A stretch of 60,610 bases of DNA from Escherichia phage Pondi: the sequence record OP136151.1. One strand, written 5' to 3'. Positions 12,551-44,049 of this stretch are shown here, piece by piece. Positions within the stretch are counted from its first letter, which is position 1, and each line of letters opens with the position of its first letter. A program made the translations under genes and the position numbers. The notes beneath the pieces are model-generated. The model had not been told where the DNA came from and searched no databases. It worked only from the letters and a program-made list of their open reading frames with translations.

Positions 12551-12836
12551 ACCCTGCTCAACTTTTAGTTTTCGCGTAGCGCTGCGTAGATTGGTTACTT
12601 TTTAACCTGCGAAGGTAGGAATCTAAAAGCTAACGACGAGAACTAAAAGCGCGCGAAGATTTCTCGAAGCCTTCTTGAAGAGGCCACCCGCTAGATATTG
12701 CTTGCAGTCACCCTCAATAATTGAGAAACTAATTCTGTGCTTTTTGACCTTTGAATTATTAACAAGCTTTTAGTTAGTTATTATTTACTTCGCGGGTGAA
12801 AAGTAGTTAGTTAAGTATATAAATCTAACTAAAAGC
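12551..12836. repeat. Iteron-like 9-10 bp motif AACTAAAAGC / GCTTTTAGTT in five copies within the long noncoding region
   Basis: Copies read at about 12551, 12621, 12641, 12766 and 12827 in both orientations in a 451-bp gene-free region. Confidence 0.4.
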
Positions 12837-17714: not shown

Positions 17715-17984
17715 ATGACTAACATTAAATACCCAACGCCGCAAGAAGCCCTGGCCTATGCAGAGAACACCGGGCGCGCTAACGTGTTGCCGCTCGGCTG
17801 GGTGATAAAGGCTAATAAAGGTCACTCTATTGAGATTGAATTGTATTATGGCGCTCACCTGATGGCGGTCGCTTACAGCGATCACCTGGTGCGGTTCCGC
17901 AGTAAATATGAAACTGTGCAATGTAAAAGTTTTGATGAAGCAATGGGCCAGATTGTTCATCACGCATGGGAGATGGTGTCATGA
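17715..17984 (+). CDS. Hypothetical protein, 89 aa
   Basis: ORF; ATGA overlap with next gene. Confidence 0.45.
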   Translation: MTNIKYPTPQEALAYAENTGRANVLPLGWVIKANKGHSIEIELYYGAHLMAVAYSDHLVRFRSKYETVQCKSFDEAMGQIVHHAWEMVS

Positions 17985-18244
17985 ATACCTTAATGCGTCA
18001 GGCTCCGGCTGATACCGACTGGTCAATCTTTGTATCAAAGGCCATGCGTCACGCAGTAGCTGACCTGGTGGACCTCGACCGACTGGAGCGTTACGACGAT
18101 AATTTTTTTGCGGCTATCTTCCCGCCGCACCAGTTTACTACGACGCGCCGCCTGTTAGCTATGCACGGCATCAAGTCCACAGTAGCCAACCGCGCTAAGA
18201 TAATGCGCGAGGCTGCCCGGATGGTGAAGGAGGCCAGCCAGTGA
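17981..18244 (+). CDS. Hypothetical protein, about 87 aa
   Basis: ATG at 17981 overlapping upstream stop (ATGA). Confidence 0.45.
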   Translation: MNTLMRQAPADTDWSIFVSKAMRHAVADLVDLDRLERYDDNFFAAIFPPHQFTTTRRLLAMHGIKSTVANRAKIMREAARMVKEASQ

Positions 18245-18299
18245 GCACTACATTAACAATCGGTTTCTATGTAACGCTGGGCTATCTTTCTTTAACGTT

Positions 18300-18674
18300 G
18301 TGGGGGTTCCTGTGAACAACTTGCCGAGATTCATCGCCGCCGTGGCACATATTACCGACTTTCCGATTGAGCGTAGCAAGTACGGCAGTATGCAGGATGA
18401 GATGTACCAGGTGTACACACTCGACGATTTAACGTTAATCGGTTCTACCACGTTTGGCGGCTATCTGATCACTGTTCATAAAGGGCGCAGTGTTCTTTAC
18501 GAACTTCGGGTGTACGGTAACAATGCCATCTATCACCACACGTTACAACGAGCTATCAAGCTGGATAAACGTACCGGTAAATGGGTAACTTACGTTAAGT
18601 TAACCGAAGGCATGGCATTTACTAACCTTTATGATGCAATGATGCACTGCGGGGGTACTCATGGCTGGGTTTAA
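18300..18674 (+). CDS. Hypothetical protein, 124 aa (GTG start)
   Basis: ORF; start uncertain. Confidence 0.4.
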   Translation: MGVPVNNLPRFIAAVAHITDFPIERSKYGSMQDEMYQVYTLDDLTLIGSTTFGGYLITVHKGRSVLYELRVYGNNAIYHHTLQRAIKLDKRTGKWVTYVKLTEGMAFTNLYDAMMHCGGTHGWV

Positions 18675-18969
18675 TGTATTCGCAAGCGCGGCGCTTAAAC
18701 TGTCAATCGCGCTGTTTATTCTGTCGACGCTGTACATCATGACATGTGACTACGGCACCTTTCACGACATCATCACACAGTTAAGGCGGTTGTAATGCAA
18801 GGAATAATTACAGGTCTTGCCTTCTCCCTGACGTTGTGGGTAATGTCAATGGTTGCAGTATGGGCGGTCCTCCGGTTCGTGTTCGGTCTTCCGGTAGACC
18901 TCTGGCGTTAATTTTATGGTCGACGTGGTGGCGGCCTCCTTTCCACTACAAATAATAGGAGCTTCAAAC

Positions 18970-19155
18970 ATGTCTAAATCTATCATCGCTATCATCCTGG
19001 CTACTCTTCTGGCTGGTTGCTCTGCTAACGTCGGGTACAATCCCAACGTATCCGGGCAAACCGGGCGCGCTGAGTCCGACTCACCTAACGCGCAGCAACG
19101 CGCCGAGAACGCTCAGACGTCCCGTGATGCTGCGGCTAAGGGCGGCGAGTGGTAA
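18970..19155 (+). CDS. Small outer-membrane lipoprotein, 61 aa (candidate superinfection-exclusion protein)
   Basis: MSKSIIAIILATLLAGCSANV: signal peptide plus lipobox LAGC with Ser at +2; AGGAG RBS; followed by GC hairpin. Confidence 0.6.
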   Translation: MSKSIIAIILATLLAGCSANVGYNPNVSGQTGRAESDSPNAQQRAENAQTSRDAAAKGGEW

Positions 19156-19163
19156 TGAAGGGC

Positions 19164-19177
19164 GGGGCTTCGGCCCC
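19164..19177 (+). promoter_or_regulatory. GC-rich UUCG-tetraloop stem-loop (GGGGC-UUCG-GCCCC), third copy
   Basis: Same hairpin as at 2222 and 9157, here on the plus strand after the lipoprotein gene. Confidence 0.5.
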
Positions 19178-19182
19178 AAACT

Positions 19183-19377
19183 ATGGCGATCAATTTAAAA
19201 ACCCGTGTGCAATACCTGGCCGAGCGGGAGGCCATAAGTTTATCGGAGGTTGAACGGCGAGCAGGCTGGAAACGTGGCACGCTGTTCATGGTACTAAAAG
19301 CAAACAATCCACGCCTTCAAACGCTGGTATCACTGGCGGCGGCGCTCAACGTAACGGTAGGGGAATTAATATCATGA
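19183..19377 (+). CDS. Helix-turn-helix (XRE/Cro-like) DNA-binding protein, 64 aa
   Basis: LSEVERRAGWKRGTLFMVLKANNPRLQTLVSLAAALNVTVGEL matches the HTH_XRE pattern. Confidence 0.6.
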   Translation: MAINLKTRVQYLAEREAISLSEVERRAGWKRGTLFMVLKANNPRLQTLVSLAAALNVTVGELIS

Positions 19378-21435: not shown

Positions 21436-21702
21436 GTGAACGTAAACGAAGCACTGAGTATCGCACCGGAAGGCTGGGAACTGATCAGCTTTGACAATAT
21501 GGGCGCTTGTCAATACAAACGCGAGTCGCATTTATTGAAGCGTTATCGTAACGGTACATGGGTATGCGTTGCTCGCGCTAACGATGAGCGTGAGTACGAA
21601 AGTAACGCATACCTGACAGCACAAGACGCGATCGACGACTGTCGCCGGGCGTTTGAGTCGCGCCGCGAAAAACTTTTCATATCACTGAGGAATTTAAAAT
21701 GA
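21436..21702 (+). CDS. Hypothetical protein, about 88 aa (GTG start)
   Basis: GTG preceded by AGAGGG; the longer upstream extension would contain the promoter candidate. Confidence 0.4.
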   Translation: MNVNEALSIAPEGWELISFDNMGACQYKRESHLLKRYRNGTWVCVARANDEREYESNAYLTAQDAIDDCRRAFESRREKLFISLRNLK

Positions 21703-21986
21703 AATATATCACCTGGATTCTCGCAGCATACGCCGCACTGGCTATCGGTATGAACGTAGCGCACGCGGCTGTACTCAAGACTCACACCTACAGTTTCACC
21801 ACAACCTACATCGTGACGGATACTGACAAGATCCCGGCGTGCATTATCTATGGCGGCGGTATGCCACTGGTCACACCAAACGCCTGTGATCGTGCCGTAC
21901 GCGTCATGGCTGAGCTTATCCGCAAGGATGACCCGACGGCACTCCTTGACTTCACTCTGGATGGTCTGGAGTTAAGCAAGTCATGA
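21699..21986 (+). CDS. Predicted secreted/periplasmic protein, 95 aa
   Basis: N-terminal signal peptide MKYITWILAAYAALAIGMNVAHA with an AxA cleavage site. Confidence 0.55.
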   Translation: MKYITWILAAYAALAIGMNVAHAAVLKTHTYSFTTTYIVTDTDKIPACIIYGGGMPLVTPNACDRAVRVMAELIRKDDPTALLDFTLDGLELSKS

Positions 21987-22252
21987 TGCGCGGCTATGTG
22001 CTGACGGTCGAGCTTAAAGCGGGTGCGAAGCTGTACCACTACCCGCAGCAAGTAGGCGGCCACCGCTGGGCGCTGACAGGGGCGAAGGTTGTCCCCGCCA
22101 GTCTTGATGAAACGTGCGACCAACTGGTTAAAGAAGGCTGGCTGGTACCGGGCGATGAGAGAAACGAGTGGGTACTATGGCAGACGGCATCATCAAATTC
22201 AAAATCTACCCCGGAAAACTCCGGGTCTACTTCAGCCTTGAAAAATACCTGA
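21983..22252 (+). CDS. Hypothetical protein, 89 aa
   Basis: ATGA-coupled ORF; 3' end overlaps next gene by about 76 nt, so C-terminus uncertain. Confidence 0.35.
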   Translation: MMRGYVLTVELKAGAKLYHYPQQVGGHRWALTGAKVVPASLDETCDQLVKEGWLVPGDERNEWVLWQTASSNSKSTPENSGSTSALKNT

Positions 22253-22509
22253 AGGACTTCCCGGACCGCAAAAGCGATGAGTACGCGTTAACAAACGCTT
22301 TTGCTACCGTTGAGCACATAGGGCCATGCGTGGTGTATATCAGGGAGCCTTCACCGTCGCTGGTGATGCACGAAGCTATACACTCAGCATGGGATGTTTT
22401 AAATCACGTAGGGATCAAGGTTGAATATGACAACCACGAAGCATTAACCTACCTGGCCGAGTATATTTTTACGGAGACTTTAAAGCTATGGACTCGCTAT
22501 TCGCGTTAA
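22177..22509 (+). CDS. Small protein with HExxH zinc-metallopeptidase-like motif, about 110 aa
   Basis: VMHEAIHSAWD contains HExxH; start set at internal ATG. Confidence 0.4.
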   Translation: MADGIIKFKIYPGKLRVYFSLEKYLKDFPDRKSDEYALTNAFATVEHIGPCVVYIREPSPSLVMHEAIHSAWDVLNHVGIKVEYDNHEALTYLAEYIFTETLKLWTRYSR

Positions 22510-22564
22510 TAGTTTTTATCGTACTGTGCTACGGGTTCTATAAAATACTGGAGATGATACTGAA

Positions 22565-23059
22565 ATGATTTACATCTGTGATTTGGACGGTACCTTGTAC
22601 GACAATCGCCACCGCGCGCACCTGATGCCGACTGGCGACAAACGCAACGACACCGAAGCCTGGGCGCAGTTTAACGGGGCGTGCCGTGGTGATAAGCCGA
22701 TCCCTAATATGCTGGCTATCATCAAGCAACTGTTGGCTAGTGGTGAATATGTGCGATTCCTCACCGGGCGCGGCAAGTCTGCCTACCTGCCGACGATGGA
22801 CCGCCTGCATAACGATCTGGAGTTAAGCCGCACGCTTATCGAATTACAGATGCGCCCTATGGATGACCACCGAAGCGCGGCTGAGTTCAAGTGTGATATA
22901 CTGCGCCGCCTGCTGAAGACCTACGGAACTGAAAAGTTTACGTGCTTTGAGGATGACCCTGAAGTTTGCGCAGCATTCGAAGCGCTTTCAGACCGGGTGA
23001 TCGTGGTGCAGGTTGATAGCCTGTGCGCTGCTGTACTGGATGGGGATAGTAATAAGTGA
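22565..23059 (+). CDS. HAD-superfamily phosphatase, 164 aa (polynucleotide 3'-phosphatase/nucleotidase-like)
   Basis: Motif I ICDLDGTL (DxDGT), motif II LTGR, conserved Lys, motif IV FEDD. Confidence 0.65.
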   Translation: MIYICDLDGTLYDNRHRAHLMPTGDKRNDTEAWAQFNGACRGDKPIPNMLAIIKQLLASGEYVRFLTGRGKSAYLPTMDRLHNDLELSRTLIELQMRPMDDHRSAAEFKCDILRRLLKTYGTEKFTCFEDDPEVCAAFEALSDRVIVVQVDSLCAAVLDGDSNK

Positions 23060-24660: not shown

Positions 24661-24904
24661 TATTGAAGCTACAGCAACGAGTGTAGAGGTGGGTACGTCT
24701 ACCTACAACGAGATCAGCGTTAATATCGTACACTTGAACCTGGCCGAGTATGTGAGCGCTGAGGCAATTGTCGCTGAATACAGTGCATCTTCGCTACTAG
24801 ATGCGATCGGCGGCTTTGACGACTGGGTAGAAGAGGGGCGCGTCCGTGAATCAGACGTTGCTGAATGGCTGGCAGAACGTGGTTATAAAGTGGAGAAAGA
24901 ATAA
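24650..24904 (+). CDS. Small strongly acidic protein, 84 aa
   Basis: Internal ATG with GGGGGAG RBS; net charge about -12. Confidence 0.45.
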   Translation: MAINIEATATSVEVGTSTYNEISVNIVHLNLAEYVSAEAIVAEYSASSLLDAIGGFDDWVEEGRVRESDVAEWLAERGYKVEKE

Positions 24905-25104
24905 TGGGTAAGTTATCAGGTATCATTGCAATAGGTGCAATTTGGGGTGTTATTCTGGCTGGTATCACAGGCTGGTTCTTGAACCTGGCGCACTGCCTGT
25001 CGTATATTGGTGGAGGCCATCCAGATGATACCACCGCCGAAGTAGTGATGCGCATCGTAGGAATTTTCACCTTCTTACCTGGCGCGATTGCTGGCTGGCT
25101 GTAG
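24904..25104 (+). CDS. Small membrane protein, 66 aa, two predicted TM helices
   Basis: Two hydrophobic stretches; TAATG coupling. Confidence 0.45.
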   Translation: MGKLSGIIAIGAIWGVILAGITGWFLNLAHCLSYIGGGHPDDTTAEVVMRIVGIFTFLPGAIAGWL

Positions 25105-28118: not shown

Positions 28119-28313
28119 ATGTTTTCTGTAGCCATAATTTTATCGTCGTTCGCGTGCCTGATGTTCAGTGTAGTGGCTTACATCCTGGCTGAAACATTCG
28201 AGAGTGTTAGCTGGCGTGAGCGTACATTGGGTGCGATCAGTGGGTCATTCATTGGAATACTAACCGGACTGGGCGTTGCAGCAATTCAAGTGTTGATACA
28301 CCTGGCATCATAA
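28119..28313 (+). CDS. Small membrane protein, 64 aa
   Basis: Two hydrophobic helices; AAGAGG RBS; last gene before terminator. Confidence 0.45.
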   Translation: MFSVAIILSSFACLMFSVVAYILAETFESVSWRERTLGAISGSFIGILTGLGVAAIQVLIHLAS

Positions 28314-41610: not shown

Positions 41611-42448
41611 AGTCACCGCGTTCACGGTCGAGAAGGAACTCGACCTGTCGAAGCCGAATGAGGATGCGTACTTCAAACCGTGCACTGCCGGGAACGAAGA
41701 AAGCATTGGCCTCATCGCGGCTAACCCTATGCAGGATGAGATGACCTGGATACACAAGGGTATCACCTTCCTACAGTTCCAGTACCAGAAACGCAAGGTA
41801 CCAGACAAATGGTTGCGTGCTGAGTTCGCTCGCCGCACCAAAGATAAAACCTTCAACCGGGATGAGGCCAATACCATTTATGAACAAGTTAAAGCGGAAA
41901 TGTGGGAGAATGTACTGCCTTCTAACGACTACGGCTGGGTGGCGTATGATCCAGATCGAGATGCTCTTTTTGTGGGCGCTTCTCCCCGTGTGGTTGAAAA
42001 GGTCACGCAACTCTTACGCCAGGCGTTTAACAGCCTGCCGATCGAAAGTTATCTCCAACCTACGGCGTTTTGTCAAATGGTACGAGCTACGCTGAATATC
42101 GACCGGGAAGATGAGCACCCGCTGGAACTGGGCGACAGTCTGGACCTGTACGGTGCTTTCAAAGCTACAGCAACCTTCCGCAAAATGGACAACCTGTCAG
42201 GTAACGATAAGGTGTTTTCCACGCTGAAGGACTTCCCGAATGTGCAGGCGGCCAACTTCACGTACGCTGGTGACGAAGGTTATTTTGCGTGTACCCGGTA
42301 CACCGACATGGTGATCCCGTACGAAAAGGATAAGGAAGCTGATGACTGCGGCGACATCCTGTTGCAGTACGACAAGGCCAGTCAGTATCTTGACATACTC
42401 GCTGAAGTTTGCGAGCCATACGTAACTGAAAAAGGAGCGAAGCTATGA
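41594..42448 (+). CDS. rdgC: RdgC-like recombination-associated protein (putative), 284 aa
   Basis: N-terminal pattern MTAKFKVTAF...FKPCTAGNEE and a C-terminal DREDE segment recall E. coli RdgC; from memory. Confidence 0.35.
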   Translation: MTAKFKVTAFTVEKELDLSKPNEDAYFKPCTAGNEESIGLIAANPMQDEMTWIHKGITFLQFQYQKRKVPDKWLRAEFARRTKDKTFNRDEANTIYEQVKAEMWENVLPSNDYGWVAYDPDRDALFVGASPRVVEKVTQLLRQAFNSLPIESYLQPTAFCQMVRATLNIDREDEHPLELGDSLDLYGAFKATATFRKMDNLSGNDKVFSTLKDFPNVQAANFTYAGDEGYFACTRYTDMVIPYEKDKEADDCGDILLQYDKASQYLDILAEVCEPYVTEKGAKL

Positions 42449-42975
42449 CAAGTATAAATGAAATTATCGACGAGATTATTCGCGTTGAAGGTGGATATGT
42501 AGACCATCCGAATGATCCGGGCGGTGCTACCAAATATGGCATCACTGAAAAGGTTGCCCGTGCTGCTGGGTATAAAGACCATATGAAAGACTTACCGTAT
42601 GGTATCGCACGTAACATCTACTACACTGACTATGTGGTTAAACCGGGTTTCGACAAGCTGGCTGAGATCAACGCTGACATCGCGGCTGAAGTGGTAGACA
42701 CTGGCGTGAACATGGGTCCGACGGTGGCTGGTAAATTCCTCCAGCGTGCACTCAACGCTGTGTCAGGCGCTGGCCTCGTAGTGGACGGTGCTGTCGGTAA
42801 GCGTACAGTGAATGCCCTCGCAGACTTCCTGCGTTCACGCGGTAGCGTTGGCGCTAAAGTATTACTGAAAATGCTTAACAGTCTCCAGTGCGTACGGTAT
42901 ATTGAGCTTACCGAAAGTAACGCCAAAAACCGCTCATTCATTTATGGATGGGTCGCCAACCGCGTGAACATCTAA
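42445..42975 (+). CDS. Endolysin: glycoside hydrolase family 108 domain plus peptidoglycan-binding domain, 176 aa
   Basis: N-terminal EGGYVDHPNDPGGATKYGIT is the GH108 signature; C-terminal PG_binding_3-like region; AAAGGAG RBS. Confidence 0.8.
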   Translation: MTSINEIIDEIIRVEGGYVDHPNDPGGATKYGITEKVARAAGYKDHMKDLPYGIARNIYYTDYVVKPGFDKLAEINADIAAEVVDTGVNMGPTVAGKFLQRALNAVSGAGLVVDGAVGKRTVNALADFLRSRGSVGAKVLLKMLNSLQCVRYIELTESNAKNRSFIYGWVANRVNI

Positions 42976-43031
42976 GCGGCCAGTCGAGGTCGTCAATCCC
43001 GGCAAGGACGCCAATGTAAGGAGCTTAACAG

Positions 43032-43265
43032 ATGGACAAATCCAAAGCGCTGCACGACGCTGGTATCACTATCGGTATCGCTGTGACCACCGTGTTAACC
43101 ACGGTACCGGACGCCGCGTTAGTAGTGTGGCAGACTGCCCCGCATTTATTCCAGGCTGTGGTACCGGAAGAATATCTCCCGGTCGTGTCTGGTGTCATTA
43201 CTTTACTGGTGGCAATCAGTCGCGTCATCAAAGCTAAGAAAGCTAAGGCGGAGAAGAATGGCTAA
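43032..43265 (+). CDS. Holin (class II-like, two TM helices), 77 aa
   Basis: Two hydrophobic helices and Lys-rich C-terminus, immediately downstream of endolysin. Confidence 0.55.
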   Translation: MDKSKALHDAGITIGIAVTTVLTTVPDAALVVWQTAPHLFQAVVPEEYLPVVSGVITLLVAISRVIKAKKAKAEKNG

Positions 43266-43458
43266 GGGACTCCGTATTACCAGACGTGAAGGTCAGAGCG
43301 TCTACATCGGTAACGATATTGTCGTGACGGTAGAGAACTCCGAGAACGGTAACGTCGGTCTACGCATTTCCGCACCGTCGGATGTAGGTATTCACCGCGA
43401 TCCTGACCGTGTACCTGTGCAGTTAAAAATTGCAGCGAGTATTAAAAAGGGGCGTTAA
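43258..43458 (+). CDS. csrA: CsrA/RsmA-like RNA-binding protein (carbon storage regulator homologue), 66 aa
   Basis: MAKGLRITRREGQSVYIGNDIVVTVEN...GNVGLRISAPSDVGIHRD aligns with E. coli CsrA [25 protein letters not shown]...VRIGVNAPKEVSVHRE; GGAG RBS; overlaps holin 3' end. Confidence 0.65.
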   Translation: MAKGLRITRREGQSVYIGNDIVVTVENSENGNVGLRISAPSDVGIHRDPDRVPVQLKIAASIKKGR

Positions 43459-43470
43459 GCCCCTTTGTTT
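43444..43470. terminator. Bidirectional rho-independent terminator
   Basis: A5, stem GGGGC/GCCCC with GTTAA loop containing the csrA-like stop codon, then TTTGTTT; sits between convergent genes. Confidence 0.65.
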
Positions 43471-43688
43471 ACTAAGCGTTCCACTTCTTCCCTCAAGTGC
43501 TCGATAGTCTGTTCCGCCCTCGCCAGTTTAGCCGACAGCAAAACAATCCTTTCGTTCGTGGCCTCTTCCGCAGCTTCCTTCTTACGTTCGTTGTGAAGAT
43601 TCAACGCATGGCGCACCAGGTTGAATAACACAGCGATGGCAATGAAAGGTAACGGCGCATCCACAGGAATTGAACTAAGTTCGAACAT
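43455..43688 (-). CDS. Membrane-anchored coiled-coil protein, 77 aa (i-spanin-like)
   Basis: N-terminal TM helix PFIAIAVLFNLV followed by charged helical ERKKEAAEEATNERIVLLSAKLARAEQ. Confidence 0.4.
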   Translation of the reverse strand: MFELSSIPVDAPLPFIAIAVLFNLVRHALNLHNERKKEAAEEATNERIVLLSAKLARAEQTIEHLREEVERLVNKGA

Positions 43689-44049
43689 GAGCCAACTCCC
43701 ATAAAGTGACGCCAGCGGTAGACCAGAAAATCAGGATGGGAACTACTCCGACTGCGGCGGCTTGTGCGGCCATGCCGAGATAACACCAGAAGATACAACT
43801 GAAGAACGCTACACACCAGTGGCTGAATGTTCCCATCCATCGCTCAGGGTTGCGGGAGATATAGATCTGAGCGCCACCGATCACAATGCCTGAGAATACC
43901 CACCATGCGCCAGGCATGATACCAGTTAACTCATCAATAATGACTGGCTGTTTGAATACTGCCGCCACGATTGACCACGTTAATGTCACCATGCCGACAA
44001 GCATTTCCACTCTAATCTGCTTGTTCATGTTGTAATATCCCATGTCCAT
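43675..44049 (-). CDS. Integral membrane protein, 124 aa, 3-4 TM helices (holin/antiholin-like or exclusion protein)
   Basis: Multiple hydrophobic helices; GGAG RBS; downstream of the terminator that ends the giant gene. Confidence 0.45.
   Translation of the reverse strand: MDMGYYNMNKQIRVEMLVGMVTLTWSIVAAVFKQPVIIDELTGIMPGAWWVFSGIVIGGAQIYISRNPERWMGTFSHWCVAFFSCIFWCYLGMAAQAAAVGVVPILIFWSTAGVTLWELAHVRT

Follow-up and report, generated by a model that had tools for sequence, protein, structure and literature searches.

The + strand of Escherichia phage Pondi (sequence record OP136151.1; 60,610 nucleotides [nt], the whole stretch analyzed here and referred to as the window) carries between 12.9 and 28 kb an operon of around 50 small genes that are arranged head to tail with overlaps of 1-4 nt and that, judged by gene order alone, presumably forms the early, host-takeover region. 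Four open reading frames (ORFs) that fit precisely into the gaps of this overlap-packed operon are so short that it has to be asked whether they are genes at all and, if so, what their hydrophobic products might do. We refer to these micro-ORFs as p24, p44, p38, and p26 according to their lengths in amino acids (aa). The way in which their sequences vary among related phages indicates that all 4 are almost certainly real genes under purifying selection. With regard to their role, we favor a reading whose chances we judge to be evenly balanced: The micro-ORFs would be accessory genes for inner-membrane peptides that, together with a small lipoprotein, form an exchangeable envelope module in a virulent Xuquatrovirus-like coliphage. 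By analogy to known systems, this module might serve superinfection exclusion or the blocking of receptors or entry, so that the infected envelope would be closed to further phages, which we put forward as a tentative proposal.

Selection on the micro-ORFs was assessed with a set of 11 lineages composed of the window, 2 GenBank phages, and metagenome contigs. The GenBank phages are Escherichia phage PTXU04 (Xuquatrovirus, MK373772; lineage L001) and HelliStehle_Bas95 (PQ850607; L002, hereafter Bas95), to which the region of OP136151.1 shows ~89% and ~91% nucleotide identity, respectively; the PTXU04-like relatives are podoviruses of ~60 kb. The metagenome contigs comprise ERZ808028 NODE-206 (L012), a single lineage (L015-L025) that recurs in 26 or more assembly blocks, and 6 more contigs (L026-L031) that were reached via homologues of the 87-aa gene upstream of p24. 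The biology of these phages was termed “enigmatic” in the BASEL-II paper, which reported a strict O-antigen dependence of Bas95 (PMC11990801).

The most striking pattern is that of p24, which is present in 7 of the 11 lineages and invariant from residue 5 to residue 24 (LTIGFYVTLGYLSLTLWGFL). All 10 variable nucleotide sites in codons 5-24 are synonymous, and amino acid changes are confined to residues 2-4 in 2 lineages; pairwise comparisons gave a nonsynonymous rate (dN) of 0 and a dN/dS ratio of 0 at synonymous rates (dS) of 0.17-0.28. This makes p24 the most conserved product of a neighborhood in which amino acid identity across lineages spans 51-99% overall (88-99% for the 87-aa gene and 51-85% for the 120-aa gene between p24 and p44). 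p38 is found in all 11 lineages with identities down to 58% and dN/dS of 0.12-0.42; 15 of its residues are invariant (M1, Q2, T6, L8, L12, W15, W23, L26, F28, V29, P33, V34, L36, W37, and R38), and its C-terminal tail FVFGLPV(E/D)LWR is nearly fixed. The dN/dS of p44 lies between 0 and 0.16, while p26, with an orthologue in PTXU04 alone among the relatives (2 lineages in total), shows 69% amino acid identity and a dN/dS of 0.28. When the same DNA is read in the 2 alternative frames, almost all variable codons alter the amino acid.

This substitution pattern largely refutes, and leaves as highly improbable, the explanation that the micro-ORFs are chance ORFs or merely coupling devices, i.e., regulatory upstream ORFs or spacers of irrelevant sequence. 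It is true that GTGA, TAATG, or ATGA overlaps are found at almost all boundaries and that the gene after p24 has its G-rich ribosome-binding site within the end of the p24 ORF, as such devices would have it. However, the readings as chance ORF or spacer-only upstream ORF are excluded because the micro-ORF frame is conserved and the alternative frames are not, and a regulatory upstream ORF or leader peptide should have an unconstrained peptide sequence, which is at odds with the strong purifying selection on amino acids (dN/dS of 0-0.42) and the invariant core of p24. A spacer is also not needed, because the flanking genes are joined directly in lineages without p24, and the hydrophobicity of the product persists where an unrelated cassette takes the slot of a micro-ORF (see below).

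All 4 micro-ORFs exist much as the original prediction, made from the letters of the window, had described them: a cluster of translationally coupled micro-ORFs for single-helix hydrophobic peptides next to a lipoprotein gene, with only minor corrections of coordinates (Table 1). The location of p24 and its GTGA overlap with the upstream stop were borne out by the sequence. A supposed 45-aa peptide at about 18660..18797 is encoded by a real ORF that is one codon shorter and is now called p44, and the 38-aa peptide placed at about 18796..18912 has the right length with its boundaries shifted by one position. The ATGA junction said to couple the 26-aa peptide (22488..22568) to a HAD phosphatase gene is present, and the lipoprotein gene indeed adjoins the cluster, 58 nt past p38.

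The proposed translational coupling agrees with the start/stop geometry of the micro-ORFs. The Shine-Dalgarno motif of p24 is kept as AAGGAGG or GGAGG in every p24-bearing lineage examined, and the second GTGA at the end of p24 overlaps the GTG (18312) of the downstream 120-aa gene; this GTG is the true start of that gene, in agreement with the annotated N-terminus MSNLPR of PTXU04_00073. The final 14 nt of the upstream ORF (end 18674) already belong to p44, whose ATG has GGGGG 5 nt 5’ of it, and the start of p38 shares one base with the TAA stop of p44 (TAATG). The coupling does not extend to the lipoprotein gene, which has its own AGGAG as well as a 58-nt spacer from p38 and is therefore not overlap-coupled. 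A fusion of p24 to its upstream gene by -1 frameshifting was considered and rejected, as the stop is not preceded by a slippery heptamer (GCCAGCCAGTGA).

The predicted hydrophobicity of the peptides exceeds chance expectation. Their best 19-residue Kyte-Doolittle means are 1.35 (p24), 2.00 (p44), 2.10 (p38), and 2.22 (p26), while in a six-frame null of 567 window ORFs of 20-50 aa only 2.1% reach 2.0 and 11.5% reach 1.3. AlphaFold, run from single sequences, predicted one continuous helix each for p38 (residues 2-37; predicted local distance difference test [pLDDT] 93) and p44 (residues 2-43; pLDDT 91). Together with the purifying selection, these models uphold the description of the products as single-helix peptides from real genes.

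Table 1. Coordinates of the micro-ORFs, their neighbors, and the lysis genes in the window (TM, transmembrane; HTH, helix-turn-helix).
Feature	Coordinates	Strand	Description
Upstream 87-aa gene	17981-18244	+	PTXU04_00074 orthologue; TGA stop (18242-18244) overlaps p24 GTG
Shine-Dalgarno AAGGAGG of p24	18227-18233	+	7 nt 5’ of GTG start
p24	18241-18315	+	24 aa; GTG start; MSTTLTIGFYVTLGYLSLTLWGFL; zero charged residues; GTGA junctions at both ends
120-aa gene between p24 and p44	18312-18674	+	PTXU04_00073 orthologue
p44	18661-18795	+	44 aa; ATG start; hydrophobic N-terminal helix, polar charged C-terminal tail
p38	18795-18911	+	38 aa; TM helix and conserved tail FVFGLPV(E/D)LWR
Lipoprotein	18970-19155	+	61 aa; lipobox LLAGC at residues 13-17; own AGGAG
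XRE/Cro-type HTH protein	19183-19377	+	64 aa; Pfam HTH_26 (3.5e-6), HTH_3 (6.7e-6)
p26	22488-22568	+	26 aa; hydrophobic; ATGA overlap with HAD/PNK-type gene
HAD-family polynucleotide kinase/phosphatase (PNK)-like gene	22565-23059	+	164 aa; annotated in PTXU04 and Bas95
GH108/PG_binding_3 endolysin	42445-42975		lysis cassette
Holin	43032-43265		phrog_1356 match

In the annotation of the GenBank relatives, p38 corresponds to PTXU04_00072 and Bas95_0075 and p44 to Bas95_0076, all listed as hypothetical proteins. p24 and p26 have no annotation in either genome, and PTXU04 also lacks one for p44 and for an additional 32-aa ORF described below. New findings are the identification of p24 and p26 (plus p44 and the 32-aa ORF of PTXU04) as genes that lack an annotation, the exceptional degree to which p24 is conserved, and the architecture of cassette slots around p38. 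Two of the 4 genes were missed by gene callers and curators in these relatives, including p24 as the most conserved coding element of its neighborhood, and genome-wide functional screens with PTXU04 that rest on annotated starts have bypassed p24, p44, and p26.

The second line of evidence is the exchange of cassettes around p38. Directly 5’ of it, 6 lineages carry p44, 2 carry a divergent 52-aa allele with the same TM part (L027 and L031), and ERZ808028 has a TM peptide of 38 aa that is unrelated apart from the MAGF start, which is forced by the overlap; the slot is empty in L028 and L030. Directly 3’ of p38, 3 lineages encode the 61-aa lipoprotein, 6 a 57-aa protein with an LIGC lipobox (type B), and one a 32-aa TM peptide, while one lineage has nothing at this position. 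The type-B protein represents the Bas95_0074 family, is unrelated to the 61-aa lipoprotein, and is ATGA-coupled to p38. Three unrelated envelope proteins are therefore found in this same slot (window 18970-19155; L002 4985-5158; L012 6156-6254), and p38 precedes a small lipoprotein in 9 of the 11 lineages, with L030 keeping p38 without any lipoprotein. A slot with constant start and end junctions is also seen at the position of p26: Bas95 and the L015 lineage have nothing there, and ERZ808028 has a soluble ORF of 77 aa; except for this ORF, all slot products are predicted to be envelope-targeted.

A further unannotated cassette lies directly 3’ of p24 in PTXU04, where a 95-nt insertion at the equivalent of window position 18315 creates a second TM micro-ORF of 32 aa (L001 4583-4681; VKDHFVAVLSACMTLIAISATVKYICEMWGFL). 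It shares its terminal WGFL-stop/GTGA junction with p24 and looks as if it had been inserted via recombination at this 15-nt WGFL-stop junction.

The 61-aa lipoprotein is the only ORF of the window with a lipobox of the form [LVI][ASTVI][GAS]C and matches Pfam LPAM_1 with E = 0.029; a search for homologues retrieved clade members only. It also shows a weak likeness to alanine-zipper lipoproteins of the Lpp/OprI type (NF040598), with E = 1.8e-5, which misses the cut-off of that family. The gene for the XRE/Cro-type HTH protein is the constant downstream neighbor of the module in every lineage examined. Just past the lipoprotein stop, at 19164-19177, we noted a GGGGC-UUCG-GCCCC hairpin that is kept in PTXU04; it is not terminator-like, because it has no U-tract, and the 61 nt around it fold no better than shuffled sequence.

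How could such a module work? We envision that ribosomes would arrive at the micro-ORFs via the overlapping stop/start junctions (GTGA, TAATG, and ATGA) as well as via their own Shine-Dalgarno sites and that the products would insert into the inner membrane as lone TM helices. There, the peptides would bind a larger membrane protein helix to helix, a mode of action that we propose because a lone helix of 24-44 aa has no catalytic capacity. p38 would form the invariant core of the module and p24 an extremely conserved optional partner, while p44, p26, and the lipoproteins would be cassettes exchanged at conserved gene junctions.

Small hydrophobic proteins in the early regions of phages are a known kind, and T4 Imm and Sp, HK97 gp15, T5 Llp, Cor of phi80 and T1, or TraS and TraT of the F plasmid are small, non-essential envelope products that are made early. 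The module resembles such exclusion systems in that a hydrophobic inner-membrane protein is paired with a lipoprotein (an outer-membrane one in the exclusion systems) and in that both vary between related genomes. This likeness is drawn because of the lipoprotein pairing in 9 of 11 lineages, the dispensability described below, and the turnover of alleles at a fixed locus. There is, however, no sequence relationship: A TrbK match reached E = 0.055, the match to Cor (phrog_1119, E = 0.11) covers a signal peptide only, and the micropeptides themselves matched none of Imm, Sp, Cor, Llp, and gp15. In size, they also fall far below Imm (83 aa) or TraS, and the resemblance is meant as an analogy.

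Functional data on annotated orthologues are available from a transcriptome-wide CRISPRi-ART study of PTXU04 in E. coli BL21, in which guides were placed on GenBank starts and genes with a score > -1.1 were called “Fit” (PMC11879866). The p38 orthologue PTXU04_00072 (score -1.36, P = 0.55) and the lipoprotein PTXU04_00071 (score -1.11) were both Not Fit (PMC11879866, supplement 16) and are for this reason regarded as dispensable for lytic growth in BL21. Dispensability is also a property of exclusion proteins. Not Fit was also the call for the 120-aa neighbor PTXU04_00073 (score -2.05; PMC11879866). The result fits an accessory role and names no target. Among the 47 genes 00046-00092, only 7 were Fit or Semi-Fit, including the Semi-Fit genes PTXU04_00074 (score -1.03) and PTXU04_00060 (score -0.60), the calls for which were not statistically significant (PMC11879866). 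These 2 genes lie directly 5’ of the unannotated p24 and p26, respectively; this may be fortuitous, or the knockdowns may have affected the coupled micro-ORFs. The authors of the study reported little polarity and no major polar effects (PMC11879866), and we consider this a weak lead.

Several points weigh against the reading as an accessory envelope module with an exclusion role. A Not Fit call means dispensability in one laboratory host and not a function, and p24, the 32-aa ORF, p44, and p26 of PTXU04 were outside the targeting of the CRISPRi-ART study because they are unannotated there. We infer translation, membrane insertion, partner binding, exclusion, and early timing of the micropeptides from the features described above, and the exclusion role is argued by analogy and from the pairing with lipoproteins. 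A p24 core that never changes would be easier to reconcile with a host machine of high conservation than with a receptor that varies. For the p38 helix, conservation on one side is suggestive at most (permutation P = 0.06).

Homology searches also weigh against this reading, as no homology of the micropeptides to any characterized host inhibitor or other protein of known function was found. Neither the 4 peptides nor the alleles of the relatives matched a family in Pfam, PHROGs, NCBIfam, or PADLOC; p44 and p38 gave no match when 5.8 billion proteins were queried by a word-indexed search, and HMMER searches of 1.84 billion representative proteins retrieved only the orthologues P0001 and P0003 besides 2 repetitive proteins judged to be spurious. 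Other searches had similar outcomes. When the peptides were concatenated and compared with 50,697 phage records by tblastn, PTXU04 and Bas95 alone were retrieved, pattern scans of IMG/VR found PTXU04 only (plus chance matches to WAVL(R/S)FVF), and no micropeptide match was obtained in a plasmid collection. As far as these comparisons reach, the micropeptide family is confined to this phage clade. At the RNA level, no Rfam family reached its gathering score between 17500 and 23200; the only match, to a eukaryotic long noncoding RNA model (20.4 bits vs 70, E = 0.11), is taken as chance.

In format, the micropeptides resemble small bacterial membrane regulators such as AcrZ, MgtS, MgrB, KdpF, CydX, and YohP, single TM helices of 25-50 aa that act on larger membrane proteins by binding and often escape annotation (PMC12648545; for YohP, PMC7549839). 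They differ from these in being phage-encoded, in lacking any NCBIfam or Pfam match, and in having no copy at the DNA level in 5,426 complete E. coli genomes.

In a different explanation, the micropeptides would be effectors of host physiology or anti-defense that inhibit a conserved inner-membrane machine and so favor the phage’s own replication instead of excluding others. This is the reading of the original prediction, according to which such peptides can act on host transporters, divisome proteins, or receptors. Conceivable targets include a transporter, the divisome or elongasome, a respiratory or Sec/YidC component, O-antigen assembly, or a membrane-anchored abortive-infection system. 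The evidence for real membrane peptides applies equally here, and the invariant p24 core as well as the 15 invariant residues of p38 suggest a conserved target. O-antigen machinery is a conceivable one given the O-antigen dependence of Bas95 (PMC11990801) and the analogy to Iap (gp22 of epsilon15 and Iap of D3), a small hydrophobic peptide by which seroconverting phages that likewise use the O-antigen as receptor inhibit the O-antigen polymerase of the host. Yet the Iap of epsilon15 differs in having 66 aa with 2 TM segments, in being encoded beside an O-antigen ligase/polymerase gene, and in belonging to a temperate phage. An Iap-type inhibitor was rejected as a specific candidate, since BLASTP of epsilon15 Iap against the 4 peptides gave E >= 0.46 and the neighboring genes are without wzy or gtr domains. 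Beyond this, knockdown of p38 had no fitness cost, p24 is missing in 4 of the 11 lineages and p44 in 2, and PADLOC and NCBIfam gave no match, so that we regard the host-effector explanation as possible though rather doubtful.

We consider a bolder model unlikely, in which the locus is modular and reshuffles rapidly. p38 as invariant anchor and p24 as ultra-conserved, uncharged helix, together with the swappable peptides and lipoproteins, would form a trans-envelope complex on a conserved host machine, with alleles being swapped at the stop/start junctions to track host variation. If true, such a “membrane micropeptide array” would be an undescribed type of phage envelope takeover or exclusion in which nearly all peptides are shorter than 50 aa.

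Given their size and hydrophobicity, the peptides could alternatively be toxin-like and perturb membranes in the manner of TisB, Hok, Ibs, ShoB, or YohP, i.e., oligomerize and depolarize the membrane for host shutdown or for the timing of lysis as holin or antiholin accessories. p24 is uncharged and p38 contains a G/SxxxGxxxS small-residue motif, as would suit this mode of action, and holins, pinholins, and antiholins are likewise small hydrophobic membrane proteins of phages, although the micro-ORF peptides are shorter than known holins. Toxin and holin profiles gave no support: NCBIfam searches with E up to 5 returned no family such as Hok, Ldr, Ibs, TisB, ShoB, or similar for any of the 4 peptides, and among the holin and other profiles of PHROGs and Pfam p24, p44, and p26 had no match and p38 only phrog_20640 (unknown function; E = 0.19). 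Early depolarization would moreover starve the phage, and knockdown of p38 was neutral. A holin, antiholin, or spanin role was rejected in view of a separate lysis cassette, and the micro-ORFs are not considered lysis genes because endolysin and holin are encoded 24 kb away. Altogether, a toxin-like role appears improbable.

A spanin pair of p38 and the lipoprotein was rejected on separate grounds, as p38 has only ~11 residues outside its helix, the 61-aa lipoprotein is missing in 8 of 11 lineages, and Rz-like PHROGs match the lipoprotein weakly (E 0.05-0.13). In the lysis region (42445-44049), 2 further genes were noted on the - strand, one for a multi-TM protein of 124 aa (43675-44049) and one for a protein of 77 aa with a TM segment and a coiled coil (43455-43688). 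A spanin pair that includes a lipoprotein was not recognizable there.

Similarly improbable is that the micropeptides are subunits or assembly factors of a membrane complex of the phage itself, where they would anchor the soluble 87-aa and 120-aa products or aid the lipoprotein. Such a role would suit the tight coupling to neighboring genes, to which the ATGA junction between p38 and the type-B lipobox protein adds 6 lineages. The gene 5’ of p24 is well conserved (88-99%) and Semi-Fit. However, p38 is kept without any lipoprotein in L030 as well as in lineages without p24 or p44, and the 120-aa neighbor diverges (51-85%) while p24 is invariant.

The swapping of membrane cassettes around an invariant 38-aa core marks this locus as a tractable place to learn by what means these phages manipulate or seal the envelope of E. 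coli. At their length, the peptides can be synthesized, and they come from poorly understood, O-antigen-dependent phages.

Some observations concern the genes around p26 and the wider operon. Related loci of the HAD/PNK-type gene downstream of p26 match Pfam Acid_phosphat_B and HAD_PNKP. Upstream of p26, PTXU04_00060 (window 22168-22509; L001 8723-9061) is annotated with 59 aa, but the window, Bas95, and ERZ808028 share an ORF conserved over ~110-113 aa. The deposited start, on which the guides of the CRISPRi-ART study for this Semi-Fit gene were designed, is thus probably too far downstream. The same operon encodes further small envelope candidates: a 95-aa protein with a signal-peptide-like N-terminus (21699-21986), a 66-aa protein with 2 TM segments matching phrog_6006 (24904-25104; E = 2.4e-8), and a 64-aa protein with 2 TM segments and without a family (28119-28313). 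Finally, the divergent intergenic region upstream of the operon (12561-12836) contains 5 copies of AACTAAAAGC with 0-1 mismatch in both orientations. Across the whole window, 8 matches to this motif were observed vs 2.9 expected, and the repeats may be operator or promoter-associated elements.

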